DNA from: a virus
Lineage: Duplodnaviria > Heunggongvirae > Uroviricota > Caudoviricetes
Virus record (IMG/VR): IMGVR_UViG_3300009008_000004
Coordinates: 18,004 to 82,003 of that record
DNA length: 64,000 nt
Strand: one strand, 5' to 3'
The notes under the pieces are model-generated. The model made no database searches. It was not told where the DNA came from and saw only the letters and a program-made list of their open reading frames with translations. This document shows, one piece after another, positions 1,246 through 40,936 of the stretch; position 1 is the first letter of the stretch, and every line of letters begins with the position of its first letter. The position numbers were made by a program, and so were the translations under genes.

Positions 1246-1274
1246 TACGCAGCGGGTATAAGGAGGATACGGTA

Positions 1275-1562
1275 ATGGGGACATCCCATATACAAGTAGA
1301 ACCCCAGCCAATACCTAAGAAGCTTGGCCTATGGCGGTGGTTGACGCGGTGGCTGCCGGGGCACTGTAAGTACTGCGGGAAACCGTATGTACCTGTGTAC
1401 AAAATGCCGGCCCCCTTCGTTCCCCTTGGAACGAGCGGGGCTGGCTGCCCTCTTGGCCATGTCGGTTACGTTAAGGGCTTCAACATCGGATACGGTCTTT
1501 TTAGGGATGAGTTTGATTACGTGAAGTACCCGCCAAGGGAAGAGGAGCTAAAGGATGGCTGA
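1275..1562 (+). CDS. hypothetical protein
   Basis: ATG 7 nt after AAGGAGGA; GGTATAAG box at 1255. Confidence 0.5.
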   Translation: MGTSHIQVEPQPIPKKLGLWRWLTRWLPGHCKYCGKPYVPVYKMPAPFVPLGTSGAGCPLGHVGYVKGFNIGYGLFRDEFDYVKYPPREEELKDG

Positions 1563-1977
1563 GTACCTAAATGACGTAGCGAAGGCGCGTCGGATTATCG
1601 ACGCCCACAAGAAAAGGACCATCCAACTAACAAAGCGAAGCATTATCGCTGACAAGACCATCGCGGTCTTCGAGCAAGCACTTGCCCATGCCGCGAAATT
1701 ATGCGGGAAGGGCTACCACGAACTCCTCAAAGAAGGAGAGCGCCTACTGCAGATGAAGAAAGATGGGCGTAAGCCTGGTGGTTTTACGATGTTCGACTAC
1801 CGCTTCGCGCAAATGGTGCCGACCGCGAAATACTACGGCGAGTGCCGTGTCTACGAGTGCGCACTCTGCGGGGTGCAGAGCAACTCAGTACAAAATGGGG
1901 CAGAACTCCGGCTCTGGTCTAACGCGCACTTATGTTTTGGAGATAAAAAAGATGAGCAAGGAAGGAAAGAGCCATGA
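1555..1977 (+). CDS. hypothetical protein
   Basis: 140-aa ORF overlapping upstream stop by 8 nt (coupled). Confidence 0.5.
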   Translation: MAEYLNDVAKARRIIDAHKKRTIQLTKRSIIADKTIAVFEQALAHAAKLCGKGYHELLKEGERLLQMKKDGRKPGGFTMFDYRFAQMVPTAKYYGECRVYECALCGVQSNSVQNGAELRLWSNAHLCFGDKKDEQGRKEP

Positions 1978-2708
1978 AACGTGCGGTGGGATACACACGA
2001 GAAAACCTTAGCCGGAACCCGAAGTATGAAACCTTCGATTTGATGTACGCCTTCGATTTCCAGGCAGAGAAACTGGTTGCAGAGACCTGCCCAGAAGTCG
2101 ACGGCAAAGAATTCTCCATAACTATGCTGGGCGACACCCGGAACCGACTCCGGGAACTACTCGGCCCCCCCGATTGGCAGCTCCAGGTGGGAACCCAGAG
2201 GAACGTCTACTGCGTAGCCGCAGCCGGTATGGATATCGCAATTGTCGCCTCCAAGCGTGGAACTAGTTTCGAGGGGATCCTTCCCGAGGGGATGGCTCGT
2301 CACAAGAACAGCGGGCAGCAGTATGTCCGTGCCAGCCGAGACAAGGCCGGTCGAGCACTTGGGGCTATCTACCATTTCTTAAAGACTGGGAATACCCAAG
2401 TGCGCTTCAAAGACATCAAGGAGCGGAACGCCAAGTTCCGGAAGATACTCGCCGACAGACCCATGCTGTGGAATGTTGGTTGTCAGGCGGATCGTCACTA
2501 CCTGGTGCGAATGGTCCTGGAGCTTGCAGCCTACGCCTCGAGCCTCCACGAGACGCCGAGTACGCTAAAGACCGCGGTTCCCCTGGAGGAGATTATCTCC
2601 TACATTGAGGGGCGGATCCCGGAGAAGCCCCACGTCGGCAGGCAGCAAACTATTGAGGGCGAGCCCCACTCTGAGCAGCTGAAGCGGTGGGTACGGAGGG
2701 AAGAATGA
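1974..2708 (+). CDS. hypothetical protein
   Basis: 244-aa ORF, ATGA overlap with upstream gene. Confidence 0.55.
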   Translation: MKRAVGYTRENLSRNPKYETFDLMYAFDFQAEKLVAETCPEVDGKEFSITMLGDTRNRLRELLGPPDWQLQVGTQRNVYCVAAAGMDIAIVASKRGTSFEGILPEGMARHKNSGQQYVRASRDKAGRALGAIYHFLKTGNTQVRFKDIKERNAKFRKILADRPMLWNVGCQADRHYLVRMVLELAAYASSLHETPSTLKTAVPLEEIISYIEGRIPEKPHVGRQQTIEGEPHSEQLKRWVRREE

Positions 2709-2929
2709 AAACGTGGAGAGTGGGTAAATTTGGGCACTTCTCTATCCAAGAGCTTGAAGTCGAAGAGCCTATGGAGGACTCCGAGTATGGGGCCTACTTT
2801 GAGTCACTTGAGCTCGCTATTGAGTACGCAAGATGGAGGATCGAGGGACACCTGGAAAGGGCAGAACATCAGGTGGCTTTTCTCAAGAGAGTCCTGCTTG
2901 ACTTCGAAAGAAAATACGGAAAGGGGTAG
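2705..2929 (+). CDS. hypothetical protein
   Basis: ATGA overlap start at 2705 (MKTWRV...). Confidence 0.45.
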   Translation: MKTWRVGKFGHFSIQELEVEEPMEDSEYGAYFESLELAIEYARWRIEGHLERAEHQVAFLKRVLLDFERKYGKG

Positions 2930-2932
2930 GGG

Positions 2933-3100
2933 ATGAAGGTTAAAAAGAAGGCCCCGAACCAACACACACCCAAGGTGTATGACTGGCCAGGGAGAGAAGA
3001 GCAGCTGGCACGCATCCGACTAAAGATCGGGCGTGTGTGCCGGGGAGAACTTGAAATCAGTCCCTTTGCCTGGCGTAGGCCCAGCAAGGAGGAAACATGA
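2933..3100 (+). CDS. small basic hypothetical protein (55 aa)
   Basis: hand-translated ORF MKVKKKAPNQ...; GGGG before ATG; below 60-aa ORF track cutoff. Confidence 0.3.
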   Translation: MKVKKKAPNQHTPKVYDWPGREEQLARIRLKIGRVCRGELEISPFAWRRPSKEET

Positions 3101-3276: not shown

Positions 3277-3287
3277 AAAAGGGCTAA

Positions 3288-3306
3288 GGGAGGAAACTCC
3301 CTTTTT
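3288..3306 (+). terminator. rho-independent terminator (GGGAGG-aaa-CTCCC + T5)
   Basis: hairpin followed by TTTTT directly after 3276 stop. Confidence 0.55.
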
Positions 3307-3320
3307 ATCTCATTGAGATA
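3306..3320. promoter_or_regulatory. palindromic operator-like site TATCTCA-TTGAGATA
   Basis: perfect inverted repeat overlapping a TTGAGA -35-like hexamer 18-19 bp upstream of TATAAG. Confidence 0.45.
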
Positions 3321-3335
3321 TTTGGGGCTATGCCG

Positions 3336-3343
3336 GGTATAAG
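3336..3343 (+). promoter_or_regulatory. GGTATAAG box (putative -10-like promoter element)
   Basis: recurrent 8-mer in + strand intergenic regions; here 39 nt upstream of ATG 3375. Confidence 0.4.
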
Positions 3344-3374
3344 AAGGGTAGATAACCAAACGGAGGACAATACA

Positions 3375-4982
3375 ATGAAGACGTTCGAGACCCCACCGGA
3401 ACGGTGCCCCTTCTGCGATAGCATTGCGCTGATGCGCAGTAAAGGCGGGGATCGTGTGCTCTACTCCTGTCGGACAGAGGTCCTGCTCGTGGGAGGGAGG
3501 ATGTCCGAGGAGCGCATGAAGGATGGTGCGGACCGCGCCAAGGAGTGTGCCTTGCGAGAACTGCAGGAGACAAAAAAGCAGCTCGCTGCGCAGGCAACCA
3601 ACGGCGGCAACGCCCAATCCCAGGAACTCGAGGATATACTCGTTTGGATGGGCTGGAAGGACAGGGAAAGCCTCAGCGAATTTGAGGGTCGGTTCACGGA
3701 AGAATGGGGGGAGCTCCGACGTGCGTATGATCGCGAGCAGGAAATCCTTGAGAGATTCTCCATCCCCAAGAAGCTGTCGTTCGCAGAGTTTATTGAGCGT
3801 ACATGCGCTGATGAAAAGCTCAGCCGGGAGACCTTGGAAAAGATGCTCCGCGACGATCGGGCACTGCGCAAGAAATTTGGTGCCAGGGAGGGCGAGAGTA
3901 CGCATACTTTCGTCCAACGCCTCTACACGGAAGCGAACAGCCCCCTCGCCGAAGAAATGGTCTCCCTGGAGGAGGACAATTCGCGGTTAATCCAGGACGC
4001 CGCGAAAGCCCACACCGATGCCCAGAGGCTTGAGGACGAGCTCAAGATAGCTCAGGCAACTATCGATGCGCTGATACAGGGCAACAAGACAATTCGAAAG
4101 CAATTCGGTGCCCGCGAGAACGAAGAGATGTTCCACTTTGTCCAGCGCCTCCACGAGGGCTACACTGCCTACGAACGGGATGATACTAAGTTTCTTTTCG
4201 ACGTCGGGAAGGAGATGTCGGAGCTCCTGCAGGAATACGACAAGCTGGAAGGGGAAACCCTCCGGGAATGGATTGCCCGCCTGCACGCGGGATACCGCGG
4301 GGAGAAGGAAAAAGACTCCACGGACGACACTGTCCACCTGAAGCGCATTACGGTCCACACCACCGCGTACAAGGAAGAGGTACTCTACATCCCCGCCGAC
4401 CTACCGGACTGCCGTGCCTTTGTACACGAACGGTCCAAAGAGGGGCTCCCCGTCTGCTGTAGCACCGCTAAGGAAGGACAGAACTGCGTCTACTTCGGGG
4501 GTTTGATAGGAGATACGCAGGTCCTCTGCGACCAAACGCCTCGCAAGGAAAAAGAGAACACGCGAACCCTGCGTGTACACCGCTCAGACGATGCGGACGA
4601 AGATACACTCTTCGCACCAACCTGCCCGAGCAAGCCTGCTGGTGGGCGTTGCGCTGAACCACGAGGAGTTGAATGTACCTACTTTCGTGGGGCCGCTACC
4701 TCCCCCACGGAGAGTTCGTGGACTACTGCTGAGTGTGCATGCCCAACCGAGGAAGTAAAGCAGCCGCGAAGTATCACTATCCCAACAGCCTACTTGGATG
4801 GCGTCGGGGGAGCCAAAGAGCTGCGAGCCAGCCCACTAACGGCATGCCCCGATGGTACCCGCAGCTTCTGTATGCGGGGAGAGGACAAATGCCCGCACCT
4901 GGGGCCGTGGGAGAAGGATGCCGAAGGCCGCGCAACATGCCACTACCACGAGGACCTCGATGAGGTGCGTGGTCGAGGGTAG
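3375..4982 (+). CDS. large Zn-ribbon/coiled-coil protein with internal repeats and Cys-rich C-terminus
   Basis: N-terminal CPFCDS...CRTE; repeated (R/K)KFGARExE...FVQRL(Y/H) units; many Cys in last 150 aa; RBS GGAGGA. Confidence 0.6.
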   Translation: MKTFETPPERCPFCDSIALMRSKGGDRVLYSCRTEVLLVGGRMSEERMKDGADRAKECALRELQETKKQLAAQATNGGNAQSQELEDILVWMGWKDRESLSEFEGRFTEEWGELRRAYDREQEILERFSIPKKLSFAEFIERTCADEKLSRETLEKMLRDDRALRKKFGAREGESTHTFVQRLYTEANSPLAEEMVSLEEDNSRLIQDAAKAHTDAQRLEDELKIAQATIDALIQGNKTIRKQFGARENEEMFHFVQRLHEGYTAYERDDTKFLFDVGKEMSELLQEYDKLEGETLREWIARLHAGYRGEKEKDSTDDTVHLKRITVHTTAYKEEVLYIPADLPDCRAFVHERSKEGLPVCCSTAKEGQNCVYFGGLIGDTQVLCDQTPRKEKENTRTLRVHRSDDADEDTLFAPTCPSKPAGGRCAEPRGVECTYFRGAATSPTESSWTTAECACPTEEVKQPRSITIPTAYLDGVGGAKELRASPLTACPDGTRSFCMRGEDKCPHLGPWEKDAEGRATCHYHEDLDEVRGRG

Positions 4983-5794: not shown

Positions 5795-5801
5795 GTAGTG
5801 C

Positions 5802-5889: not shown

Positions 5890-6069
5890 ATGAAGATCAA
5901 CGCAACCAGGATGTTCACCGTACTCGTGGACCTGGATGAGTCTGAGGATGAAGTGGAACTAACCGCGAGGTATCATCTCCCCGAGCATTTAGAGATGTAC
6001 GCTCCTGAGATCGCCGCCCAGCTCTACACTATCGCCAACGAAATCTTCAACAGAGAGGAGTTCCACTAA
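5890..6069 (+). CDS. small acidic hypothetical protein (59 aa)
   Basis: hand-translated ORF MKINATRMFTVLVDLDESEDE...; TAATG overlap with next gene. Confidence 0.3.
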   Translation: MKINATRMFTVLVDLDESEDEVELTARYHLPEHLEMYAPEIAAQLYTIANEIFNREEFH

Positions 6070-6611
6070 TGAAGAAACCGAAGAAAGATGAGGTTTGGAC
6101 GGAACACCCCTCCCACTTCGCGTTTACAGAGGGCTCTCCTACCACAGAACCTGCAGACAAAGTCGGCACATCCATCACCTATGAGCAGGTTGCGGCTACA
6201 CCCCTCGTCCCTGCACCCTCGTCCCCACCGTACACAATTACAACTACAGGAACCCCAAAAGCTTGGGAGCCCCCGCCAGCGTGGGAGCAAAACATCCTCA
6301 GCGCAATGGGCGTCCCTCCTTCAGTCCTCTATCCAGGCGCAGGAGCCCAACAAGCACTCTTGGGCATGCAAATAGAGCAGGCCAAGCAGATGGCGGAAAT
6401 AGCCGCGCAAGAACTCTACATGGAGGGTATAAGTCCTGTAGAAGACCTTCAAGGCAAAGTCGAAAAGGACATGCAGCAGATGATGGACGAGGAGGTTATA
6501 AAGCAGCTCATTAAGATATCAGCTGGGGCGAATACGCCTAAGAAACGCATTGGCCGGCTCAAGAAGATTGCCCAGAGGATGAAGGATGAGGAAACCGAGA
6601 AAGAAGACTAA
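6069..6611 (+). CDS. hypothetical protein (Pro/Thr-rich N-terminal half, helical C-terminal half)
   Basis: 180-aa ORF. Confidence 0.45.
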   Translation: MKKPKKDEVWTEHPSHFAFTEGSPTTEPADKVGTSITYEQVAATPLVPAPSSPPYTITTTGTPKAWEPPPAWEQNILSAMGVPPSVLYPGAGAQQALLGMQIEQAKQMAEIAAQELYMEGISPVEDLQGKVEKDMQQMMDEEVIKQLIKISAGANTPKKRIGRLKKIAQRMKDEETEKED

Positions 6612-8584: not shown

Positions 8585-9259
8585 ATGAAAGTGATAATCG
8601 CCGGCTCCCGAGACCTCGACAACGTGTCCCACACCCTGGAGAGTAAGGTCACATTTGTGGAGCAAGTTGTAACTAACAGTGGGATGGGCGTTACAAAAGT
8701 ACTCTGCGGGGGCGCTAAAGGCGCAGACCAGTGGGGCAAAGCGTGGGCTATGTCCAGGCACCTCCCCGTAGAGGTCTACACCGCCAACTGGCAAGATTAC
8801 GGTAAAGCCGCAGGGATGATCCGCAACAATGCGATGGCAGACGACGCAGATGGGCTCATCCTTATCTGGGACGGAAAATCCCGGGGCTCCGCACATATGA
8901 AAAAGGCGGCGAAACTCCGTAACCTGTTCGTACACGAACAGTTGATGGATATTCCCCCAATTGAGGGGAAAATCAGAACCAAAACAATGTTCAAGAAAGT
9001 TGTGCATACCTTTGCTGCAGAAGAAGGGTTCCAACTACACTGCTTCTACATCGATACAAAAGGATGGGATGTTGTCCTTGCAGGCCTAGATACGGGCAAC
9101 AACTCCGCTAAACACGCAACGTATACCCTGCGGGAGTGTAAGACCCCCAAACAAAGGGACTGGTGGAAGGCGAGATTCACTGAATGGCTACCGGAGTTGG
9201 TGGCAGGCTACACCAGCAACTCGAAGGCCTATAAGAAGCTACATCTAAAGTGGGACTAG
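8585..9259 (+). CDS. SLOG-type (DprA/LOG-like, DUF2493-like) Rossmann-fold protein with C-terminal extension
   Basis: IIAGSRD...GGAKGADQWG...LILIWDGKSRGS pattern typical of YspA/DprA-like SLOG domains. Confidence 0.45.
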   Translation: MKVIIAGSRDLDNVSHTLESKVTFVEQVVTNSGMGVTKVLCGGAKGADQWGKAWAMSRHLPVEVYTANWQDYGKAAGMIRNNAMADDADGLILIWDGKSRGSAHMKKAAKLRNLFVHEQLMDIPPIEGKIRTKTMFKKVVHTFAAEEGFQLHCFYIDTKGWDVVLAGLDTGNNSAKHATYTLRECKTPKQRDWWKARFTEWLPELVAGYTSNSKAYKKLHLKWD

Positions 9260-9287: not shown

Positions 9288-9551
9288 ATGTATGGAGGGA
9301 TGATGTCAGTTATAGAGCTGAAAAGACAGGCGCTGAAAGAGGAACTGCTCGAGGCTAAGTTGAGCGCAGAGTGGTTTATCGAAATGATGCGGAAGAACCT
9401 GGAGATCCAGCTCGAAGAGTTGAGAGGTGCTCCCCTTGAATTCCCCGAAATCTCAGTACTCGGCGGATTGGAATTCATGGGGAACACCTTGAATGCTCTC
9501 GGGCGCTACGAGAGTTTACGCAAACAATTTACCTTGGAGGGAAAAGAATGA
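9288..9551 (+). CDS. hypothetical coiled-coil protein
   Basis: 87-aa ORF, ATGA overlap with next gene. Confidence 0.4.
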   Translation: MYGGMMSVIELKRQALKEELLEAKLSAEWFIEMMRKNLEIQLEELRGAPLEFPEISVLGGLEFMGNTLNALGRYESLRKQFTLEGKE

Positions 9552-10579
9552 TCTGGAAATTTGGGATGAAAGGGTGTCACGAACTACAGGAGATACTTGG
9601 GCAGTGCGGGTTTGCAGTTGGTGCTATCGATGGGATCTTCGGTCGTATGACCGAAGCCGCGGTATTGGCATTCCAGGCTAAGCATGGATTGCAGCAAGAT
9701 GGGGTAGTGGGGCCCCGGACAATTGACATGATGGATATGATGTTGAAGCACTCCGAGAGCTACATGGAGACCCCGGAAATCGATACCTTCCATGAAGCAA
9801 TTGGGTTGCCGGCGTTGCTCCCGCAAAACAACTTGGACCGACGGATATCCGACGCCATCAAATTGATGCAAACCTGCGATGATGGACAGGGGTGTAGATA
9901 CGGTGGGTGGATTGATGCCTACCAATTTGGCAAGGACAAGTTCAAGAACGGCGACGAGTTCCCGATCCCTAAGGTCGGAAGGATTATCCCCAACGCAGGA
10001 GTTGTGAAGCCTGCGCATGGGGGAACATGCAGCCCTTGGGCAGGACTGTTCTTGGGGTGGTACTTGTGTGTGAACCAGGACTTCAACTTCCGCATTGGTA
10101 GGAATGCAAGGTGGATGGCTACATGGCCCCACGACAAAGTGTACAAGGGAACTACGATCCCCGGGTACGGCGACTATTGCGAGGTCAATGGAAAGTTGCG
10201 GTTGGAGCACCACCCATTGAACAAGCTGTATGGAGATTGGGAGTGGCTCAACAAGATCAACATCATTGAGATGGACCACCACATTGTCCTTGTATTGAAG
10301 GTTGGTGGTGAGGACGGTCTGCACCTCGAGGATCCCTACAATGAGGGAGTACCGATGAAAAGCGGGTTGTGGAGACTTGGGGCAGATGGCTACTACCCGA
10401 AAGTCAATGGGAAGAAGTATTACAGTGGGACAAAGCAGACGCTCAAGCGCATTAATGCGACAATGCGGTGTAGCCAGAAATGGGATTTTTACCGGGTTAC
10501 AGACATGAATGAAGAGACTTGTAACCCCGATGCAGGACCTTGGGCCGGTCGTACCCCGCGAAAATTGGTCTTGGAGTAG
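9548..10579 (+). CDS. cell-wall hydrolase: N-terminal peptidoglycan-binding domain + CHAP/NlpC-like Cys-His peptidase
   Basis: LGQCGFAVGAIDGIFGRMTEAAVLAFQAKHGLQQDGVVGPRT = PG_binding_1 signature; later GGTCSPWAGLFLGWY (Cys) and EMDHHIVLV (His). Confidence 0.65.
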   Translation: MIWKFGMKGCHELQEILGQCGFAVGAIDGIFGRMTEAAVLAFQAKHGLQQDGVVGPRTIDMMDMMLKHSESYMETPEIDTFHEAIGLPALLPQNNLDRRISDAIKLMQTCDDGQGCRYGGWIDAYQFGKDKFKNGDEFPIPKVGRIIPNAGVVKPAHGGTCSPWAGLFLGWYLCVNQDFNFRIGRNARWMATWPHDKVYKGTTIPGYGDYCEVNGKLRLEHHPLNKLYGDWEWLNKINIIEMDHHIVLVLKVGGEDGLHLEDPYNEGVPMKSGLWRLGADGYYPKVNGKKYYSGTKQTLKRINATMRCSQKWDFYRVTDMNEETCNPDAGPWAGRTPRKLVLE

Positions 10580-11233: not shown

Positions 11234-11250
11234 ATATCTAATCGAGATAT
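11234..11250. promoter_or_regulatory. quasi-palindromic operator-like site ATATCTAATCGAGATAT
   Basis: same 17-mer as 34304-34320 in inverse orientation; overlaps TCGAGA -35-like hexamer. Confidence 0.45.
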
Positions 11251-11263
11251 TTCGACCAATCCG

Positions 11264-11271
11264 GGTATAAG
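11264..11271 (+). promoter_or_regulatory. GGTATAAG box
   Basis: 18 bp after TCGAGA hexamer. Confidence 0.4.
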
Positions 11272-11313: not shown

Positions 11314-11336
11314 AAATAACCAAACGGAGGATCTCT

Positions 11337-13878: not shown

Positions 13879-13899
13879 GAAGGGAACAGCCCTTCTTTA
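13879..13899 (+). terminator. rho-independent terminator (GAAGGG-aaca-GCCCTTC + TTT)
   Basis: hairpin directly after stop at 13878. Confidence 0.5.
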
Positions 13900-13921: not shown

Positions 13922-13929
13922 GGTATAAG
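13922..13929 (+). promoter_or_regulatory. GGTATAAG box
   Basis: 30 nt upstream of ATG 13960. Confidence 0.35.
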
Positions 13930-15025: not shown

Positions 15026-15053
15026 TTATCCCATTGCGATATTTGGAGGAAAT

Positions 15054-17585: not shown

Positions 17586-17593
17586 GGTATAAG
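17586..17593 (+). promoter_or_regulatory. GGTATAAG box
   Basis: 32 nt upstream of ATG 17618. Confidence 0.4.
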
Positions 17594-17617: not shown

Positions 17618-19381
17618 ATGGCACTGAAAGACGAGCAATTCATCCAACAGCTGGTCGTCCAGCTGGTAGGACAACAAGCCGAGGAGGGCAAGACAGGAAT
17701 GCACGATGCTGAAAGATGGGAGCAGCTGAACCATGCTCTGCAGGAAGCCAAGGACATCATTACCCAACAAGACGAGATGCTCCGCGAGATGAACGAGCCG
17801 CCTAACTCGTTTGGGACCATCCTCTCAATCGAAGAGCCCGAGCCACCCACGGTGGAAAACCTTCTTCGGAAGAAGGGCCGAGTCAAAGAAGGACGGCCGC
17901 ACGAAGGCCGGGGCATCTTGGTCAAGGATGCCTGGGAAGTCACAGACGAAGAGGGAAAGGCCACAGGAGTTTTCCGCATCTACGCCCAGTTCACCGAGAC
18001 CCCAACGCAGCACCAGAACTACGACCTCGACGATGTCCTCCTCATTGGGGGCGCTGGTGGGACAGTTATCCTCCATACCGGCGAGAAGATCCTGCGTGTA
18101 CCCTTCCCCTATTGGTTGGAGGAAGGTGTCGGGGTGGGCGACGAAGTCCTGCTGAACGTTATGACCCTGGCAATCATCGGAAAGGCAGGAGATCCCATCG
18201 GTGCCGGCGAGATCGGCAGCGTTCGGAATATCATCTCCGACCAACTCTGCGAAGTCGACTACGGTGGCACTACCAGAGTTGTGTTCCAGGGCAAGCATAC
18301 AGAAGAGATCAAGCTCGGGGACCGCGTCGTACTCAACCCCGGCGGAGTCGCTGTCTCCACCAACCTCGGGCGAGGGGAAGACCGGTGGAACCTCGAGACT
18401 GCCCAGGATATCACCTGGGGAGATATCGGTGGGCTCGAGAATGCAAAACGGATGATGCGGGAAGCTGTTGAGTACCCAATCCTCCACCAGGAAATCTATA
18501 CCCGCTACAACAAGAAACCCATCAAGGGTGTCCTTCTCTATGGCCCTCCAGGATGTGGGAAGACTATGCTTGGGAAAGCTGCTGCAACCGCAGTTGCTAA
18601 CCTGCACGGCGGGACGAAGGGTGGTTTCCTCTACATCAAGGGGCCTGAGCTGCTCAACAAGTGGGTTGGTGAGACGGAGGCACAGATTCGCTCCATCTTC
18701 GCAGTTGCCCGTCGGTATCACGAGGAGAATGGCATTCCGGCCCTCATCTTCATAGACGAGGCAGATGCGATCCTCTCCAAACGCGGGTCTGGGAGATCCT
18801 CCGACATGGAGAAGACCATGGTCCCGATGTTCTTGGCTGAGATGGATGGTCTCGACAAGTCGTCTGCACTTGTCGTACTCGCCACCAACAGGTCAGATAA
18901 GTTGGACTCTGCTGTGGTGCGGGATGGTCGTGTGGATCGTAAGATCAAGATTACCCGGCCCACCCCCGAGAGCACCGCGGAGATATTTGCGCTCAACCTT
19001 GTCGACCTTCCGTTTGCGAACGGTGAGGCTGTCGAAGACCTCGCGGAATTCGCGGCACAACAGCTGTTTGACCCCAAGCGAGTGCTGTACCAGATGCAGG
19101 CCAAATCGGGCAACATCCACGAAATTCGGATGGAGCATGCGATCAACGGCGGTATGATTGTGAGTGCTGTCGATCAGGCTACCTCACGGGCAATCGCTCG
19201 GGAGATGGAGGCCAAGAAGGAATCTGGGCTCGCCAAAGTAGACCTGGCTGCAGCAATCAATGATCTGTATCTCCAGAACGCCGATCTGGATCACCACGAA
19301 CTTCTCGTTGAGGTGGCAGACAACCTCGAAGAGGAGATCGCGTCCGTGCGTCCTATGATGCGCGGTAGGAGAGCTGCATGA
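17618..19381 (+). CDS. AAA+ ATPase, PAN/ARC (proteasome-associated ATPase)-like architecture
   Basis: N-terminal coiled coil, beta-rich middle, then classical AAA: GPPGCGKTM Walker A, ALIFIDEADAIL Walker B, second region of homology; RBS GAAGGGAG. Confidence 0.8.
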   Translation: MALKDEQFIQQLVVQLVGQQAEEGKTGMHDAERWEQLNHALQEAKDIITQQDEMLREMNEPPNSFGTILSIEEPEPPTVENLLRKKGRVKEGRPHEGRGILVKDAWEVTDEEGKATGVFRIYAQFTETPTQHQNYDLDDVLLIGGAGGTVILHTGEKILRVPFPYWLEEGVGVGDEVLLNVMTLAIIGKAGDPIGAGEIGSVRNIISDQLCEVDYGGTTRVVFQGKHTEEIKLGDRVVLNPGGVAVSTNLGRGEDRWNLETAQDITWGDIGGLENAKRMMREAVEYPILHQEIYTRYNKKPIKGVLLYGPPGCGKTMLGKAAATAVANLHGGTKGGFLYIKGPELLNKWVGETEAQIRSIFAVARRYHEENGIPALIFIDEADAILSKRGSGRSSDMEKTMVPMFLAEMDGLDKSSALVVLATNRSDKLDSAVVRDGRVDRKIKITRPTPESTAEIFALNLVDLPFANGEAVEDLAEFAAQQLFDPKRVLYQMQAKSGNIHEIRMEHAINGGMIVSAVDQATSRAIAREMEAKKESGLAKVDLAAAINDLYLQNADLDHHELLVEVADNLEEEIASVRPMMRGRRAA

Positions 19382-22695: not shown

Positions 22696-23028
22696 ATGGG
22701 AATCGATTTCTTGGCCCGGGCTATTACGCGGGTCAAAGCCCTCGATCGGGTACTCCGGCAAGCGAGCAAACAAGACTGGACTTACTATCTACAAAAAGGA
22801 GTGAACACTGAATACCGGGCGGTTGGTAGAGACCAACTTATCCTGGTCAAAGCTCTCCGACTCCTTGCCGAAGTAATCGTCGATATCAGTTACCTAAAAA
22901 TAGACCCCAAACTTCGCGAAAAGATGATTCGGGAACGGATCGATTACGCGATCGACTCTGCTCAGGTACTACTCGCTGAAGAGGAGGCGGAAAAGACCGC
23001 CCACACTCGGTATAAGAGCGATAAGTAG
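22696..23028 (+). CDS. hypothetical protein
   Basis: 110-aa ORF. Confidence 0.45.
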   Translation: MGIDFLARAITRVKALDRVLRQASKQDWTYYLQKGVNTEYRAVGRDQLILVKALRLLAEVIVDISYLKIDPKLREKMIRERIDYAIDSAQVLLAEEEAEKTAHTRYKSDK

Positions 23029-23077
23029 ACAAGTAGAAAAAAGATTACAGGTGCTCGTTGAGGCCTGTTTTCTTTAC

Positions 23078-23884
23078 CTAGAAGTCCAGGGCAGTGCCGC
23101 AATTCCCGCAGAATTTCTGGGAACTCCTCCACCTCCTACCGCAAGTCTTGCAGGCAAGACGGGTCTTTGTCGTAACTGCCTTCCTCACCCGTTGCTTGCC
23201 TACTGCACCTACAAGCTCAAGGACGATTACATTCGGAGGTTCAAGAAGACCCACAGAAGTAGAGTGGAACTTCTGGTCTACAGCGGACCCCGCAACAGTA
23301 ATGCCCTCATCGGAAGCAGGAACTGTACAATTAAAGCAACTGATAGACCCACCGGTAGATGCGCTCTTTACCTGGTGGGGGCCCGTAGTCGTACTACAAG
23401 TAAAGGTACCGCCAGGGGTAGAGGTATACGTCCACGTACCCGGGGCATACGTATAGCTCCACGTAATCGCAGGCTTCTCAAGAGCATACTGTACACGGAT
23501 AAACCCGTCTGAGACGTCGTCCCCCCGATGCTCCTGTATCTCCTCTGTCTTCTGAATGAACTTGAAAGCCTTCCGGGCACGGTCCCCCTTCATGAAACCT
23601 TTGAGCTCCAGTTCTGTGTTGGGAGCTATAACCAGTTGCGTTCCGTCCAAGACATCTGAGCCGTCGATCTCTACGTCTACTACCGCACGTTGGGTAGACA
23701 TGTTCTTCAGCAAGATCGTGTACTCCTCCCCAAAAGGCAGCCGTACACGGCCAGTACGTCGAGTTTCCCCCGGAAGACCCCCGCCTTCCCCACTTACTTG
23801 TTCTTCTCTGAGAAACCGATTGCCAACTTTTACTACAGCCACAAATTGTTCGTGATACATCATGAGAGCCTCCTCTCGGGTCAC
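23078..23884 (-). CDS. hypothetical protein with C-terminal Zn ribbon
   Basis: 268-aa minus-strand ORF ending CKTCGRRW...CGNCG; divergent from HTH gene. Confidence 0.5.
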   Translation of the reverse strand: MTREEALMMYHEQFVAVVKVGNRFLREEQVSGEGGGLPGETRRTGRVRLPFGEEYTILLKNMSTQRAVVDVEIDGSDVLDGTQLVIAPNTELELKGFMKGDRARKAFKFIQKTEEIQEHRGDDVSDGFIRVQYALEKPAITWSYTYAPGTWTYTSTPGGTFTCSTTTGPHQVKSASTGGSISCFNCTVPASDEGITVAGSAVDQKFHSTSVGLLEPPNVIVLELVGAVGKQRVRKAVTTKTRLACKTCGRRWRSSQKFCGNCGTALDF

Positions 23885-23990
23885 CGGCTAAGACCCGTGT
23901 AGTTTACAGCCGGTTAGAGCAACGTCACCGCGACGTCAATATTAGAATACCGCCCCAAAAAATATCTGCAAGGAATAAAGTGGTCCTTCT

Positions 23991-23998
23991 GGTATAAG
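23991..23998 (+). promoter_or_regulatory. GGTATAAG box
   Basis: 32 nt upstream of ATG 24030 in divergent intergenic region. Confidence 0.4.
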
Positions 23999-24029
23999 GG
24001 AGTCAGAGACTACACCTACGGAGCTTATA

Positions 24030-24299
24030 ATGACGGAAATAGATTGGAGACGAAGTTTTGGATTGCGCTTACGTTTAGAGATGACGCGCCAAAACCTTTC
24101 TGCACGAGCACTGAGCCGCGCTACAGGATTGCACCACGACTACATTGGCAGCCTTATCAGGCAACAAACCCCAAGAAATCCCTCGATAGGAACACTACTG
24201 CGGCTAGCAGATGCACTTGGTATTCCCCTGGAACGCCTCTGCGTGCGGGACGGCAAGGGGAAATACCTCTTTACCGATTTACAGGAAACCTATGAGTAG
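24030..24299 (+). CDS. XRE/Cro-CI family helix-turn-helix transcriptional regulator
   Basis: LRLRLEMTRQNLSARALSRATGLHHDYIGSLIRQ...IGTLLRLADALGIPLERL: canonical HTH_3 pattern. Confidence 0.65.
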   Translation: MTEIDWRRSFGLRLRLEMTRQNLSARALSRATGLHHDYIGSLIRQQTPRNPSIGTLLRLADALGIPLERLCVRDGKGKYLFTDLQETYE

Positions 24300-27685: not shown

Positions 27686-27765
27686 AACTTGACGGATGGG
27701 GTCCCGGAGATGGAAAATATCAAGTTGAGATATTCCGCTCCGGGGCCTACATCCATGGGGGAACA

Positions 27766-31018: not shown

Positions 31019-31026
31019 GGGTATAA
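31019..31026 (+). promoter_or_regulatory. GGTATAAG box
   Basis: CCCGGGTATAAGAG 54 nt upstream of ATG 31080. Confidence 0.4.
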
Positions 31027-31079
31027 GAGACTCGTAACCGAACCTGCCGTATTTCTATTGAGCACACAGGAGGGAAAGT

Positions 31080-32942
31080 ATGCTCGCAATTCTTGTTTTG
31101 ATCACCATCGTAGTACTGTGCAGCATTGTCGTACTGTGGAAGTTCCGCTTCACCAAGAAGGAGTACACCGGGGAGACCACCATGGGTGGTTACGAGAAGT
31201 ACAAGACGGTGAAGCACCATCTGCCGCGCAAACTGCAGATCCTCGGAACTGCGCTTGCTATCATCCTATGGGCAGCAACATTTCTCGGAACGACTCTGTA
31301 CGTCGCACCGAAGACGGGGTACCTCGAGTACTCAAAGACATGGGGTGGTGGCTCCATGGGACCGGGGCAGATCGTTGCCTACGACGGAGAGAACGGCCCG
31401 CAAGCAGAAATTCTGCCGCCCGGACCCCACATCCTACCCCCGTGGCAATTCGAGGTCATCGAACGCTCCGACTTCGTAGTCCCTCCGGGCCAGATCGCAG
31501 AGCTGTCGACCAAGGACGGCGAACCACTATCCCCGGGTATGCGCTATGCACCTGAGTGGCAAGAGCTATCTGCCTTCCTCGATGCAGTAAACTTCCTCTC
31601 CTCTGGGAAAGGCTACAAAGGCGACCAAGTCACAATCCTCAAACCTGGTAACTGGAAGTTCAACCAGAACCTGTATGTCGCCGAACTCGCGAATGTTACC
31701 AACGTCCAGGTTGGGCACGTAGCAGTCGTCAAGGCAAACTACGGAGATGTCCCCACGCCGAAGACGATCAAGACCGCGAATATCATGGAAGTCGAGGTCC
31801 CGCTAACCAAGGAAGAGTTGGACATGGCCTACAAGGAGGCCATCGAGCTGGAGACCCAGCGGCAATTGGCTACAGGCATCCCCGCGGACCAGGTCAATGT
31901 AAAGCGGGAAGACGTAAAGGTCAAGAAGTCCAAAGTCATGCTCAAGGAAGTGGAGCAAGAAGTGGACGATCCCCTGGTAGACGTCGGCGAGCGTGGGATC
32001 TGGAGGAAGCCGCTGATCCCCGGAGAGTACTTCATGCACACGAAGGCGCATGAATTCAAGGATATTTTGACCATGAAGGTTCGCGTTGCCTACAGTCCTG
32101 AGGACAAGAAAGAACAGGACAACGTAGCGTTGGACCCAATCATCGTAAGGTCGAAAGATGGCTTTGAGTTCCCCGTCGACGTGCGCGTGGTCTACCATAT
32201 CGAACCCTCCGATGCACCTTGGGTGGTGGCAACCATCGGCGATGACGACTACGTGCTGGACAAAGTCATGACTCCTGCGGTTCGGTCAATCTTCCGAAAC
32301 CTCATGGGACGCTCGAAAGCACTCGACTTCGTAGCCGACCGCGAACTCAAGCAGCGGGAAGCAAAGTCACTGATTGCGAAAAAGTGCGCAGTGCACGGCG
32401 TCACTGTCGATGAAGTGCTGATCGGCCGGGTTGGTGATGATGCTACGCTGGGGGCGCTGATGAAAACGCAGAAGGACCGCGAGATTGCAGTCCAGCAGCA
32501 AGTGACCCTTGGGGTGCAGCAGAAGGCCGCTGAGCAGCAGAAAGAGCTCAGTAAGACCCAACAGGAGGCCGAGGAGGAAAAGTCCCTGGCAAAAGCCGCC
32601 TACGAGGTCCAGAGGGCACAACAGCGCAAGCTCCAGGCCCAAGAAGACGCGGATGCGGAGGCAATCAAGGTGAAGGTCGCAGCAGAGGCTGAAGCTGAGA
32701 AGATCCGAACGATCGCTCGCGCAGAAGCGGATGGCTACACAATGAAGGTCACCGCACTTGGGCGAGACACAGTCCGGACTATCGAGGCCCTGCGCATCGT
32801 TGGGGACGCCAATCTACGGATCACGCCAAACGTCATGGTATCTGGTGGAACCGAGGGAGTCGTCAGCGCACTCGCAGGAACACTCCTCAACAACTTCAAT
32901 GTCGCTGGGAAGGGCACAGGAATGCCCATACCCACCGAGTAG
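31080..32942 (+). CDS. SPFH/band-7 (flotillin-like) membrane protein
   Basis: N-terminal TM helices, SPFH-like core (FEFPVDVRVVYHIEP), long Ala/Glu/Gln-rich flotillin-type coiled coil. Confidence 0.65.
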   Translation: MLAILVLITIVVLCSIVVLWKFRFTKKEYTGETTMGGYEKYKTVKHHLPRKLQILGTALAIILWAATFLGTTLYVAPKTGYLEYSKTWGGGSMGPGQIVAYDGENGPQAEILPPGPHILPPWQFEVIERSDFVVPPGQIAELSTKDGEPLSPGMRYAPEWQELSAFLDAVNFLSSGKGYKGDQVTILKPGNWKFNQNLYVAELANVTNVQVGHVAVVKANYGDVPTPKTIKTANIMEVEVPLTKEELDMAYKEAIELETQRQLATGIPADQVNVKREDVKVKKSKVMLKEVEQEVDDPLVDVGERGIWRKPLIPGEYFMHTKAHEFKDILTMKVRVAYSPEDKKEQDNVALDPIIVRSKDGFEFPVDVRVVYHIEPSDAPWVVATIGDDDYVLDKVMTPAVRSIFRNLMGRSKALDFVADRELKQREAKSLIAKKCAVHGVTVDEVLIGRVGDDATLGALMKTQKDREIAVQQQVTLGVQQKAAEQQKELSKTQQEAEEEKSLAKAAYEVQRAQQRKLQAQEDADAEAIKVKVAAEAEAEKIRTIARAEADGYTMKVTALGRDTVRTIEALRIVGDANLRITPNVMVSGGTEGVVSALAGTLLNNFNVAGKGTGMPIPTE

Positions 32943-33164
32943 CACCAACATCTGCGAAGGGGGCCTGGTTGGCAGGGCCGGGCCCCCTACAGCAGTTTAT
33001 CCCAATTAGATATTCGAGCAGAAGAGGGTAAAGGAGTAGGTGTTGCTGTAAGGATGACAGCAGGAATCTCCTTCAGTATACTACTGCTACTTCAACCAAT
33101 CCGCGTATGGCCGGGAAACTACTCCCGGCTGTGCCGCCTGGGTTGAACGGCGATGGAGGTAACG

Positions 33165-33969: not shown

Positions 33970-34054
33970 ATCCCCTGCAGTATCGGGAATAAGAGAAGTC
34001 CAATAGGCCCACTAACGGGCAAAGTTCTGTAAACACAGAGAGGTGAAGTACGTC

Positions 34055-35818: not shown

Positions 35819-36753
35819 AAATCAAAGTAGAACCAACAATTTTCCTTCTGCCAGAAGTCATCACGAAGATCGACATCTGGTGTAAGAAGGCCAAAGGGGA
35901 GGTCTCTGGCCTCGGCCTCATCGACATCGATGAAGATGGGGACATCTTTGTAACTGATGTCTACCTACTTGAGCAAAAGTCATCCAGTGGTAATACGGAC
36001 CTCGACCAGGAGGCTGTTGGTAACCTGATGACCGAACTCAGAAAGGAAGGCATCTCAATGTCCAAGCTCCGCTTCTGGTGGCATTCACATGGGAATGGTG
36101 GAGTATTTTGGTCGGGAACCGATGACAAGACCATCGATATTCTCGGCAAAGGCGGCTTTATGGTCTCCATGGTCACCAACAAGAAGCGGGAGAAGAAGTT
36201 CCGGATCGGGATGCAGAAACCGCTGAAACTGGACCTGGATGACGTTGGGTGGAGCCTCGCCTACTTCCCAGACGAAGAGTTTGAGAAGGAGTGCGAAAAG
36301 GAATTCGATGAGAAGGTCAAGGAGGTCACGACGATCACTACCTTCAAGGGTTCCGGAAACTACGGGCACAACCGCTCCGGCCGGGGCCGCTTCTACCATA
36401 ATGGGCGGTGGCACGACTCCTGGCCCGGTGGCAATGGGGGTTCCCGGACCGATTCTCCAGGAGGTGGGCTTCATCAGCCCGTCCCTTTTCAGGGAGAGGA
36501 CACAAGCCCCGGGACAAACAACCCACTCGAAATGCTCCCGTCGTGGGGAGAAATCCCCGGGACCGACGCAAGAAGTAGAGTCAGCGATCTCGTTGGTCAA
36601 GAGATTGAAGAGGTCGATACTCTCTGGCTTATTCTCAACGAAGCGGACTACACGGTAGCCGGGCTTGACCAACTCCGTAAGGCTAACAAGATCGAAACTG
36701 CGGAGCACAACCAAGCACGCGCCCAACTGAAGGAGCTCGGACTCGATGACTGA
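35815..36753 (+). CDS. JAB/MPN (JAMM) metallopeptidase
   Basis: E...WWHSHGNGGVFWSGTD = HxHx7Sx2D JAMM motif; ATGA coupling to E2-like gene. Confidence 0.8.
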   Translation: MKIKVEPTIFLLPEVITKIDIWCKKAKGEVSGLGLIDIDEDGDIFVTDVYLLEQKSSSGNTDLDQEAVGNLMTELRKEGISMSKLRFWWHSHGNGGVFWSGTDDKTIDILGKGGFMVSMVTNKKREKKFRIGMQKPLKLDLDDVGWSLAYFPDEEFEKECEKEFDEKVKEVTTITTFKGSGNYGHNRSGRGRFYHNGRWHDSWPGGNGGSRTDSPGGGLHQPVPFQGEDTSPGTNNPLEMLPSWGEIPGTDARSRVSDLVGQEIEEVDTLWLILNEADYTVAGLDQLRKANKIETAEHNQARAQLKELGLDD

Positions 36754-37411
36754 TATCGACAGGAATGCTATGTATCATCGGCAGCTCGATATCCTCGATC
36801 CGGAGAAGGCTGCCAAACTCAACGTCACTATTATCGGGGCCGGCGCTATCGGCTCCTTCACCGCACTCTCCCTGGCAAAGATCGGCGTAACCAACATCAC
36901 GGTCTACGACGATGACACGGTAGAGCTGCACAACATCCCGAACCAGTGGTACAGACTATCGGATGTCGGGAAGAAGAAGGTCATTGCCCTCCGCGAGATT
37001 ATCGAGCAGTTTACCGGGGTCAAGATTACCGCGATCCCGGAAAAGTTCGATAAGCAGAAGGCAAAAGGATTCGTCATCAGCGGAGTCGACTCCATGGATG
37101 CTCGCATTGGCATCTGGCAGAACCTCAAGATGCAGTTTCCACAGAGGTATCTGGATGCCCGCATGGGAGCGGAGGTGGGGGAGATACACATGGTGAACCC
37201 GGCCGACTTCGACAACGCCGAACAGTACGAGGAGAAGCACCTATTTCCCTCAACTGAGGCTGCTCCAGGAGCATGTACTGCCCGCAGCACAATGTACTGC
37301 GCCAGCGGGCTCGCTGCGATCATTGCGGCAAAGGTCAGCAACTTCATCAACCAGAGGCCCGACTCGGACCTGATCGTGGACTTCCGAAATATGAAGGTGT
37401 TGCCTGTTTGA
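36746..37411 (+). CDS. E1-like ThiF/MoeB-family adenylyltransferase
   Basis: VTIIGAGAIGS nucleotide-binding loop, YDDDTVELHNIPNQ E1 signature, 8-nt overlap with JAB gene. Confidence 0.8.
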   Translation: MTDIDRNAMYHRQLDILDPEKAAKLNVTIIGAGAIGSFTALSLAKIGVTNITVYDDDTVELHNIPNQWYRLSDVGKKKVIALREIIEQFTGVKITAIPEKFDKQKAKGFVISGVDSMDARIGIWQNLKMQFPQRYLDARMGAEVGEIHMVNPADFDNAEQYEEKHLFPSTEAAPGACTARSTMYCASGLAAIIAAKVSNFINQRPDSDLIVDFRNMKVLPV

Positions 37412-38950: not shown

Positions 38951-38954
38951 CATC

Positions 38955-40295
38955 ATGAAACCGACCCGTCTTTGGTCGACATGGAGTGTCTCGAAATTGG
39001 TGCGGGTCCTGGACTGCCCACGATCCTTTGACCTTGTCTACATCAGACAGACGAAGGGTCCCGAAAGCCCGTACAAGGTTTTCGGCTCGGCGGTCCACAC
39101 CATGCTCGAGAGATTCTTCAAAGTGAACTACCAAACAGCTGAGTCCTTCGCCAAGGCGGGCGTCGGTTTCTGGATGGGGGTCGTAGACGGAAGTCACGGC
39201 CCCTCTTCTTTTAGTGCCGAGGTAAGCAAACCAGTCATTATTGACTTCAGTAACGTGAAGGCACCAATGATGTTCCTGGGCATGATGAAGAAGATACTGC
39301 GGATCTTCTACAACGATAATTTGGAGTATAGAGATGGTCCAAAACCTACGCCAGAGGTGGAAAAAAATTTCACGCTTGATCTGGAAGGCAAAAAGATTCG
39401 AGGTATCCTGGATCGACTCCAGCCCGACCATCCGGATCTTGCCTGGAACCGGCGAGACGGGGAGCTCGGCACACGGGTGGGCCACCATATCATCGACTAC
39501 AAGCCATACGTACTCGACCAGTTCGGGCTCCACCTTGACCTGCAACTCACCATGTACAATCTGTGGTACATCCAGCAGTACGGCAGAGACCCCCTCTCAC
39601 TTGGAATCTACAATTACAAAGAGCCCATCGACAGAGTTGTATGCACACCTCCCCGCACCCAGAAGGATTTCGCCGACCTCGCCCTCAAGTTTCAGGAGGC
39701 CTCAGAGTATGTCATTGGCGTGCTCACCGGCGACATGTCGAGGCCCTCCGCAATAACCGGGTTCCGGCATTTCATCCAAGATGACCTGATGACCGGGGTA
39801 ATGACGCCCAAGAAGGTAATGGGTGGTCCCGGGTGTAAGTTCTGTGAGTTCAAGGAGAATTGCCTGAAGATTCACAAAGGGGAGCTACCGACCACGCGGG
39901 AATACGTCAAGAAGAAGTACGAACTTCCAAGCTCCCCACTCCTCCCCTTCGCGGTAAAACATAAGGGAGCGGACCGACCGCGTACCCGCGCGAATCTGCG
40001 GAGAGTGCTTGCCCGCAGAAGGGTAGAGCCTCTGCCCACCAAACCGGAGGAGGTCTATCTCCGCCTACAACTGAAGGTGGATAGGACATCCGACAAAACC
40101 GACCCAACCAAGTATGGGCGCTGCCCCCACTGCGGGTTCGCCCTCCAGAAGAACGGGAAGTGTAACAACTGCCTCTCCTGGTATAGCAAGGATGGCAACT
40201 TCCTCCCCGAGAAATCATGGAAGTCCGTCTCCGACAGGATCAAAAGGAGGAAAGAAAAGGATGAGCAGGATGTGGGACCAGGTAATAGCGGATGA
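38955..40295 (+). CDS. PD-(D/E)xK nuclease, Cas4/RecB-like with Fe-S cysteines and C-terminal Zn ribbon
   Basis: N-terminal Cys (LDCPRSF), ...DRLQPD...IIDYKPY (D-x-K), GGPGCKFCEFKENC three-Cys cluster: Cas4-family arrangement; C-terminal CPHCG...CNNC. Confidence 0.6.
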   Translation: MKPTRLWSTWSVSKLVRVLDCPRSFDLVYIRQTKGPESPYKVFGSAVHTMLERFFKVNYQTAESFAKAGVGFWMGVVDGSHGPSSFSAEVSKPVIIDFSNVKAPMMFLGMMKKILRIFYNDNLEYRDGPKPTPEVEKNFTLDLEGKKIRGILDRLQPDHPDLAWNRRDGELGTRVGHHIIDYKPYVLDQFGLHLDLQLTMYNLWYIQQYGRDPLSLGIYNYKEPIDRVVCTPPRTQKDFADLALKFQEASEYVIGVLTGDMSRPSAITGFRHFIQDDLMTGVMTPKKVMGGPGCKFCEFKENCLKIHKGELPTTREYVKKKYELPSSPLLPFAVKHKGADRPRTRANLRRVLARRRVEPLPTKPEEVYLRLQLKVDRTSDKTDPTKYGRCPHCGFALQKNGKCNNCLSWYSKDGNFLPEKSWKSVSDRIKRRKEKDEQDVGPGNSG

Positions 40296-40926
40296 GTATA
40301 ACCTCCGCCAACAAGTAGCAGACCACACGAACAACACCCTTAACTCCGTCTGTAAGGAATGCGATTCCCCCGTCTGCTGTATGCAGATGTTTGAGGTTAC
40401 CCCGTGGGATGCGCTCCTTATCATCAGGACACATCCGCAAGCGGTAACTCGGCTTATACCCAAGCTGGAAGAGCAGGCTGAACTGGAGAAGAAGTACGCC
40501 GGCGAGATGGAGGAGTACATCCATAACGAACGGCATCCCTGCGCCTTTCTCACTGCCGACGGCAAATGCGAAATATACGCCATGCGCCCCATCATTTGCG
40601 CTATGATGCATATTCGCGAAGGAGAGAAGCGCTGCGGAGACATGGACGCCAAAGAGAAGCATGCAGTTGGGCTCCTCCCGGAGCTCACTGTACGATACCT
40701 CTCCACAACACACAAAGTGTGGGAAGGTGTAGACGGACAACAGGGAATGCGGCACTTCCTACTGGAGAACGGGATGGAGGATATACCTTTTGGATTTATC
40801 CCGGGCCTTGCCACAGCCATACTCGCTGTCGGCGAAGGCAAGAAACCTCCTATGTTCTCCGAGCGGGACATGCTCATGACCGAACTTCGTATGCGGCAAA
40901 AGGGGTACATGAAAGACGCCCCATGA
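40261..40926 (+). CDS. YkgJ-family Zn/Fe-chelating domain protein (second copy)
   Basis: CKECDSPVCC...CAFLTADGKCEIYAMRPIIC. Confidence 0.55.
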   Translation: MSRMWDQVIADEYNLRQQVADHTNNTLNSVCKECDSPVCCMQMFEVTPWDALLIIRTHPQAVTRLIPKLEEQAELEKKYAGEMEEYIHNERHPCAFLTADGKCEIYAMRPIICAMMHIREGEKRCGDMDAKEKHAVGLLPELTVRYLSTTHKVWEGVDGQQGMRHFLLENGMEDIPFGFIPGLATAILAVGEGKKPPMFSERDMLMTELRMRQKGYMKDAP

Positions 40927-40928
40927 AT

Positions 40929-40936
40929 GGTATAAG
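40929..40936 (+). promoter_or_regulatory. GGTATAAG box
   Basis: in 82-bp intergenic region before 41009. Confidence 0.35.

Follow-up and report, generated by a model that had tools for sequence, protein, structure and literature searches.

Phage-specific promoter consensus sequences are well known. The late promoters of phage T4 carry the sequence TATAAATA (box at -13 to -6), are read by gp55 together with gp33 and the gp45 clamp, and are specific to one temporal class of genes. The phage sigma factors gp28 and gp33/34 of Bacillus phage SPO1 and gp36 of phiEco32 have the consensus sequences AGGAGA/TTTNTTT, CGTTAGA/GATATT and TAATGTATA, and their promoters mark middle or late genes. The consensus of sigma-28 (FliA/SigD) is TAAA-N15-GCCGATAA, and the yeast mitochondrial promoter ATATAAGTA is read by a T7-like polymerase, with transcription starting at the last base of the motif. 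Primary sigma factors flip A-11 and T-7 into pockets, and to our knowledge T-7 is near-invariant in every bacterial phylum studied. We analysed a 64,000-nucleotide stretch of tailed phage DNA (positions 18,004 to 82,003 of IMG/VR record IMGVR_UViG_3300009008_000004; hereafter the window) in which the 8-mer GGTATAAG (hereafter the box) recurs upstream of genes. We judge the chances to be about even that this box is the -10 core of a class of phage promoters read by core polymerase with a specialised specificity factor.

The window has a G+C content of about 54%, with genes on the + strand from position 1 to 47573 followed by a minus-strand structural block. It contains 11 exact copies of GGTATAAG against 1.09 expected from 100 dinucleotide-preserving shuffles, the largest number in any shuffle being six, so the conserved box to which a sequence-only reading of this DNA had drawn attention is clearly enriched over shuffled sequence. 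Ten copies are on the + strand, at 1255, 3336, 6426, 11264, 13922, 17586, 23009, 23991, 31020 and 40929, and one is on the minus strand at 40453-40460. The positions listed in that reading are correct apart from 31019, which is really 31020, and it overlooked the copies at 6426 (+) and 40453 (-), both inside coding sequence; its statement that the box occurs only on the + strand is true of 10 of the 11 copies and fails for the antisense copy. We used a working gene map of open reading frames (ORFs) with Shine-Dalgarno-supported starts, which agrees with the source-pipeline gene calls on identical contigs. On this map the non-coding DNA of the + strand module is just 2,408 nt of 47,573 nt (5%), and it fully holds eight of the ten + strand boxes (Fisher p = 1.8e-9). 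An unbiased count of 8-mers likewise gave GGTATAAG as the top-enriched intergenic 8-mer of this module, with the same eight copies. The intergenic placement upstream of genes described earlier stands, with the distance from box end to same-strand start codon measured at 12-72 nt for these eight sites in place of the 20-80 nt first given, and the longer form CCGGGTATAAG, said to be frequent, is found at four of them. One-mismatch variants of the box are near background (36 non-exact matches versus about 31 expected), so the box behaves close to all-or-none. Neither strand of the structural block from 47570 to 64000 has a copy, as had been noted before, and the next 9.5 kb have none either.

The box is conserved in uncultured relatives of the phage. 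A metagenome scan with an ATPase of the window found one true relative, locus L012 (57% identity), and a search of 5.8 billion proteins gave only five matches to the PD-(D/E)XK nuclease at E <= 1e-20, one of which, 73% identical, lies on a second locus, L216, that overlaps L012 identically. Joined, these two loci give a 35.5 kb sequence (relative R) that is colinear with the window and has about 38 genes in common with it, at 29-81% protein identity. R has five exact GGTATAAG boxes, all on the + strand, all intergenic and all syntenic with window boxes (11264, 13922, 17586, 23991 and 40929); L012 alone has four versus 0.39 expected. In pairwise alignments of the window and R the box is an island of identity within otherwise diverged intergenic spacers. 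The nuclease also led to two more distant relatives, L220 and L223 (38-43% identity). L220 has six copies of the related sequence GCTATAAG, all on the + strand, versus 0.44 expected, five of them before genes and one over the last codons of a gene, and L223 has one GCTATAAG, upstream of a gene. A GGAATC-type element lies 14-15 nt before the L220 box (exact at three of the six sites and close at two more), GTGGACCAAC is found downstream of the box at most L220 sites, and conservation in L220 runs 14 nt past the box (GCTATAAGaacaGTGGACCAAC). The other ATPase loci of the metagenome scan (L013-L016 and the rest) showed no box enrichment, nor did the loci found by IMG/VR protein scans, namely L001, whose SPFH homologue is 48% identical, and loci with ATPases related at about 35% identity. 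An IMG/VR search with the pattern GAGATATTT-N8-24-GGTATAAG gave at least 119 matches and was discarded, all being chance or coding occurrences in AT-rich phages of one metagenome.

Alignment of 22 sites from four genomes (the window, R, L220 and L223), with the last G of the box numbered -7, gives the general box form GSTATAAG. G-14, TATAAG at -12 to -7 and a purine at +1 are present in 22/22 sites, and position -13 is G in all window and R sites and C in all L220 and L223 sites (together 22/22). The other conserved positions are A-31 (18/22), A-30 (13/22), C-16 (14/22), a purine at -6 (20/22), a pyrimidine at -1 (20/22) and A+3 (16/22). A weak -35-like GGAAT (GGAAT/GAAW) lies 16-17 bp upstream of TATAAG, the spacer varying by 1 nt; the window and R conserve only A-31/A-30 of this block, and L220 has GGAATC. 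The window and R sites thus consist of 8-11 contiguous conserved bases and a separate upstream block at a flexible spacing. The pyrimidine at -1 and purine at +1, which fall at box +6 and +7, match a start about 7 nt after the hexamer. When these sites are set against the features of housekeeping promoters, A-11 is present in 22/22 but position -7 is G, not T, in 22/22, and TTGACA is not found 16-18 bp upstream; of the extended -10 features, G-14 is present in every site and T-15 in just 5/22. The form GSTATAAG is not the T4 late box, of which no enrichment was noted, and GCCGATAA is missing at the sites, which have the ATAA core and an A-rich -35 in common with sigma-28 promoters. A scan of sigma-70 consensus promoters with T required at hexamer position 6 found them not enriched, and none at boxes. 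The few good canonical pairs of the intergenic DNA are located in gaps that have no box (TTGACG-18-GAAAAT at 27689 and ATGACA-17-TATACT at 33054), which fits the presence of two promoter classes.

On the reading that we prefer, the box would be part of a promoter of sigma-70-family architecture, consisting of a weak -35-like GGAAT/GAAW, a 16-17 bp spacer, C-16, G-14 and S-13, TATAAG and a purine-rich -6/-5, with initiation at the purine 7 nt past the box (box start + 14). The predicted starts, in the order of their boxes from 1255 to 40929, are A1269, A3350, 11278, 13936, G17600, 23023, 24005, 31034 and A40943. Starts at this position give leaders of 18-66 nt that include the Shine-Dalgarno sequence at seven of the eight window sites with a downstream gene; these genes include an Mpa/ARC-like AAA+ ATPase, a Cro/C1-type helix-turn-helix (HTH) protein, an SPFH protein and several unassigned proteins. 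Such promoters would drive a + strand module of about 50 kb of small and accessory genes, would restart transcription after internal terminators, and in some cases would have their -35 region overlapped by a palindromic operator (motif B, below). The -10-like promoter reading proposed earlier agrees with strand, position, synteny and the pyrimidine-purine step seven nt after the box, inside the range of 5-9 nt that it gave for the start, and its "G-rich extension" does correspond to conserved upstream bases, which are more exactly C-16, G-14 and S-13. The reader would be bacterial core RNA polymerase carrying either a sigma that the phage encodes or modifies or an alternative sigma of the host. 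The eight invariant bases, the non-canonical G-7 and the concerted change from GG to GC between lineages argue for a dedicated factor, not the unmodified housekeeping sigma, and an alternative or phage-modified sigma is plausible because G-7 is invariant.

Several points weigh against this proposal. Promoter function, the place of the start and the nature of the reader are all deduced from sequence alone. We examined the window and its flanking loci L214 and L211, which amount to 81.5 kb (about 82 kb) of a genome of about 183 kb, and Pfam and PHROGs scans of the roughly 130 ORFs there, set as artificial "alignments" so that each ORF was searched separately, revealed neither a sigma-70-family domain nor one of an RNA polymerase. 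With a start at 1269 the gene at 1275-1562 would have a 6-nt leader lacking the Shine-Dalgarno sequence, making 1255 an anomalous site, and at 40929 and its counterpart L216:11931 a start at box+7 falls inside the 5' arm of a conserved, covarying hairpin. One box precedes the gene of a Cro-like HTH protein and another heads the whole module, as might be expected of early promoters that the host enzyme reads, and a host housekeeping sigma with an unusual -7 preference is a possible reader. The corresponding explanation, that the boxes are extended -10 promoters (GnTATAAg with a poor -35) for the host's unmodified housekeeping sigma, which tolerates or prefers G-7, is in our view unlikely. Such promoters would account for the match to seven of the nine positions of TGnTATAAT, the canonical -1/+1 geometry, the two early-promoter-like locations and the lack of a detected phage sigma or polymerase; they would not be expected to have G at -7 in 22/22 sites of four genomes, where primary sigma reads T-7, or GGAAT as their -35-like element in place of TTGACA. 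Eight-base invariance with one-mismatch variants at background would also be atypical of them, and better canonical -35/-10 pairs are present in other gaps of the window and of L223.

A further explanation, that a non-canonical or single-subunit RNA polymerase encoded by the phage recognises the box as its promoter core and starts at or just past the 3' end of the box, in the manner of the yeast mitochondrial ATATAAGTA or T7-type promoters, is in our opinion improbable. The overlap with the Shine-Dalgarno sequence at site 1255 and the hairpin at 40929 are its main support, since a start at the box end would keep that Shine-Dalgarno sequence in the transcript and would place the hairpin at 40936-40967, like its L216 counterpart, at the extreme 5' end of the RNA. 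A purine directly follows the box in 15/15 window and R sites (20/22 overall), the box is short, invariant and shifts in concert between lineages, the L220 conservation reaches 14 nt past it, and a genome of this size, of which 82 kb were examined, might encode such an enzyme. This explanation does not account for the second, upstream block with its 1-nt variable spacer, which is typical of sigma-type two-block promoters, or for the pyrimidine and purine exactly 7 nt past the box in 20-22 of the 22 sites, and the window yielded neither a polymerase-like ORF nor a DFDGD-type motif, nor did Pfam or PHROGs give a match. Very doubtful, too, is the view that the box is not a promoter at all, but an mRNA leader element or a site bound by a phage DNA- or RNA-binding protein, such as an operator or a site of antitermination or processing. 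Site 1255 does lie in a ribosome-binding region and site 40929 does abut a conserved RNA hairpin; the box, however, is asymmetric and just 8 bp long, it is located after terminators, and its distance to the start codon varies from 12 to 82 nt in the window and relatives, which argues against a translational element. The -35-like, -1 and +1 signals would then have no role, and the window, L214 and L211 were all without an Rfam match at gathering thresholds. Two further candidates were rejected. The first G of a SigB/SigF-type GGGTAT -10 is present in about half of the window sites and one of the five R sites, the L220 sequence is GCTATA, and a GTTT -35 is lacking; an archaeal TATA box is at odds with the bacterial host indicated by the endolysin and with box-to-ATG distances that include 12 nt.

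Other searches for the reader were likewise negative within their scope. No sigma or polymerase was found among the best 25 of 105 NCBIfam families, a six-frame search of the window for RNA polymerase catalytic motifs (DFDGD-type) gave nothing convincing, a PDB sequence search with three upstream minus-strand proteins gave no match, and homologues of gp55, gp33 and the clamp had no PHROG or Pfam match in the same set of about 130 ORFs. It is possible, if somewhat on the unlikely side, that the invariant G-7 and the lineage-specific base at -13 mark promoters whose reader is a phage-encoded factor that is so far unrecognisable (a highly diverged sigma, a gp55-like protein, a sigma-remodelling protein or a non-canonical RNA polymerase) and that has co-evolved with its promoters in a rare lineage of marine phages of about 180 kb. 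We speculate that its gene might lie in a candidate early region, the minus-strand block of small genes that precedes the + strand module (L214 1-4908, upstream of window position -3100).

The individual + strand sites are as follows. The box at 1255-1262 precedes an ATG at 1275 and overlaps a perfect Shine-Dalgarno sequence, AAGGAGGA, the arrangement being GGTATAAGGAGGA, 7 nt and ATG; this gene is probably translated mainly from read-through transcripts. The box at 3336-3343 follows an intrinsic terminator (3286-3303) and a motif B palindrome, and lies upstream of the ATG at 3375 of a 535-amino-acid protein. The next, at 11264-11271 (ATG 11337), is syntenic with L012:7209, also has motif B upstream, and has a leader containing a 14-bp hairpin. 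A 16-nt sequence, ATAACCAAACGGAGGA, which ends in a Shine-Dalgarno sequence, is identical in the leaders of these two boxes (3352-3367 and 11316-11331) and may be a common 5' leader or translation element; an ACCAAC-like sequence is also found after the predicted start in L220 and L223. The box at 13922-13929 (ATG 13960) is preceded by a hairpin at 13879-13895 (GAAGGG-AACAG-CCCTTC, then TTT), and its counterpart, L012:9132, sits behind a strong terminator at L012 ~9090-9117. The box at 17586-17593 precedes the ATG at 17618 of the Mpa/ARC-like AAA+ ATPase and is syntenic with L012:9817, before the homologous ATPase gene. That at 23991-23998 precedes the ATG at 24030 of an 89-amino-acid Cro/C1-type HTH_3 protein, and a 16-nt sequence there, CCTTCTGGTATAAGGG, is identical at L012:14014, before the homologous HTH gene. 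The box at 31020-31027 lies before the ATG at 31080 of a 620-amino-acid SPFH/Band 7 protein whose gene is absent from relative R, and the last, at 40929-40936, lies before the ATG at 41009 of a 214-amino-acid protein.

The remaining copies are of several kinds. The box at 23009-23016 lies inside the 3' end of gene 22696-23028 and has no counterpart in R, but it has the complete flank signature (GGAAA at the -35 position, a purine at -6, T-1 and A+1), and is likely to be functional; RNA made from it may be antisense to, or converge with, the minus-strand ORF 23078-23863. This ORF, which stands opposite the box, encodes 261 amino acids with a C-terminal zinc ribbon, has a good Shine-Dalgarno sequence, is isolated within the + strand module, and is divergent from the box-driven HTH gene. 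It lies in a variable region, 23029-24029, that is not conserved in R. The variant box that had been placed at about 33990 exists as GGAATAAG at 33986-33993 (+), directly preceded by G; it has A for T at -12 together with C-16, A-31/A-30, a purine at -6 and a pyrimidine at -1, and it is syntenic with GGCATAAG at L012:19616, before a 72%-identical small gene. This site is probably a weaker member of the box class, and as judged from the syntenic pair of variants position -12 is dispensable and the other box positions are not. The exact copy at 6426-6433 (+) lies inside ORF 6069-6611, has T at -6 and lacks a -35-like element, and the minus-strand copy at 40453-40460 is antisense within gene 40261-40926 and is followed by C, not a purine; both are probably chance copies. 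Outside the window, a + strand box at window position -2795 (L214:5232-5325 region) stands in a divergent region at the head of the + strand module. A terminator hairpin, GGGCAGC...GCTGCCC with a T-run, begins about 60 nt after it (to window ~-2700). The stretch L214:5232-5325, reminiscent of a promoter-proximal terminator under antitermination control, may encode a short non-coding RNA or form an attenuated leader.

Box 40929 runs into the hairpin at 40936-40967 (+ strand; dG -26.2, z = -5.5), the last G of the box belonging to the first base pair. In R a hairpin is found in matching register (L216:11938-11971; dG -29.9, z = -6.5), four of the nine outer pairs show compensatory double changes between the window and R, and no U-tract follows. 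Its target may be read-through RNA from upstream, with the hairpin serving as a terminator that lacks a U-tract or in processing or stabilisation, which RNA initiated at the box would escape; alternatively, transcription starts at the box end, as with a phage polymerase. Motif B is a 20-bp palindrome, TTATCtCAaTtGAGATAttT, with about 25 sites in the 81.5 kb by position weight matrix scan, mostly intergenic. Its 20-mers are at 3305, 5822, 7809, 11234, 15026, 20530, 27717, 32997, 34304, 46958, 50299 and 58740, and also at L012:9776. The copy TTATCTCATTGAGATATTTG at 3305-3324 spans about -45 to -26 of the box promoter at 3336, in an operator-like position, and ATATCTAATCGAGATATTTC at 11234-11253 has the equivalent position relative to box 11264. 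These two overlie the -35 regions of their boxes; other settings are directly after terminator T-tracts (3305, 5822), over the -10 of the canonical-like promoter at 27689, and adjoining the Shine-Dalgarno sequence and ATG at 15026 and 20530. Motif B resembles an operator to which a dimeric regulator would bind, and the window encodes the HTH_3 protein (24030-24299).

The rest of the gene content is that of a tailed phage with no cultured relative. The structural block includes a tail-sheath-like match, a 1,400-amino-acid protein of tape-measure size and a weak major-head match. A near-identity DNA search of cultured phages gave no match to the window, and all tblastn matches to the AAA ATPase were at most 32% identical. 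By exact-protein look-ups both window ends are on one 182,679-bp ENA scaffold, ERZ23498639 scaffold_85, with coordinates that wrap around, implying a genome of about 182.6 kb that is circular, or circularly permuted or terminally redundant. The PG_binding_1 peptidoglycan-binding domain of the endolysin points to a bacterial host, and an NrdG-type activase suggests an anaerobic one. When bacterial and archaeal genomes were searched with the nuclease alignment, the only match was a PD-(D/E)XK gene, 32% identical, of a Parcubacteria metagenome-assembled genome (37% GC), which gives no clue to the host. Scans for tRNA genes and Rfam families left the window empty.

Two AAA+ ATPases match TIGR03689 (Mpa/ARC proteasome ATPase; best E = 9.6e-94), and a ThiF-family E1-like protein (PRTRC ThiF model, 9e-15), a DUF2997 protein, a weak Prok-JAB match and a ParB-like protein are also encoded. 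These genes are at 17618-19381, 44032-45639, 36746-37411 and 43021-44016, with small ORFs nearby, and the set suggests a phage-borne ubiquitin-like or PRTRC-like conjugation module. In R the second ATPase is 887 amino acids long and has a faint intein signal (L216:14927-17590). Minus-strand gaps of the structural block at 63618 and 59859 share ACCAGTAT(N1-5)TGTGGTTC before genes, in two copies only, which is a possible late-class promoter motif. L220 has a cluster of nine tRNA genes (L220:4477-7034), one with the anticodon TTA, which would read the UAA stop and may be a suppressor tRNA. L001 has its own 31-nt intergenic repeat, GGATCATTGAAAAGCAGTTTAGAGTAGTGTG, in two copies within ~9300-9860, which may be a promoter or operator of its own.

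If our proposal is true, the boxes give a transcription map for an uncultured 183-kb phage in which units begin at box+14 and two promoter classes or more are in use. The departure from the bacterial -10 at one mechanistically critical base, -7, would predict a factor whose -7 pocket has altered specificity and which would be encoded in the remaining phage genome or in the host. The box could also be used to recognise relatives of this phage and to assign their genes to temporal classes. The proposal changes no general principle.

Full-text literature searches found no description of a GGTATAAG or TATAAG consensus as a phage promoter, and the box resembles several known systems in part. Like the extended -10 (TGnTATAAT) it has G-14, TATAA from -12 to -8, a weak or absent -35, and a pyrimidine followed by a purine start 7 nt past the hexamer; unlike it, the phage sites have G-7, an unconserved T-15, conserved -13 and C-16, and GGAAT for TTGACA. 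In common with the T4 late promoters there is a near-invariant 8-bp A/T-rich box near -10 with a TATAA core and little or no need for a -35, in a large phage, but the sequence is GGTATAAG rather than TATAAATA, a weak -35-like block is present, and no homologue of gp55, gp33 or the clamp could be recognised within the 82 kb. A phage-specific consensus of two blocks or of a -10 only, different from that of the host, is likewise a feature of the SPO1 and phiEco32 sigma promoters; their consensus sequences are unrelated to GGTATAAG, and no sigma gene was identified in the 82 kb. Sigma-28 promoters have the ATAA core in common with the box, G/C before it and a similarly spaced A-rich -35, but CG where the box has GT or CT, and extracytoplasmic function (ECF) sigma promoters have a GGAAC/GGAAT-type -35 with -10 sequences (CGT/GTT types) unrelated to TATAAG. 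The yeast mitochondrial promoter also has TATAAG within a short invariant sequence, whereas the flanks of the box place the start 7 nt downstream and no gene for a single-subunit polymerase was found in the 82 kb. Since it lacks the T-7 and TTGACA of housekeeping promoters and the distinguishing sequences of T4 late and sigma-28 promoters, we do not assign the box to any named promoter class, and describe it as an element that would work like a sigma-type -10.

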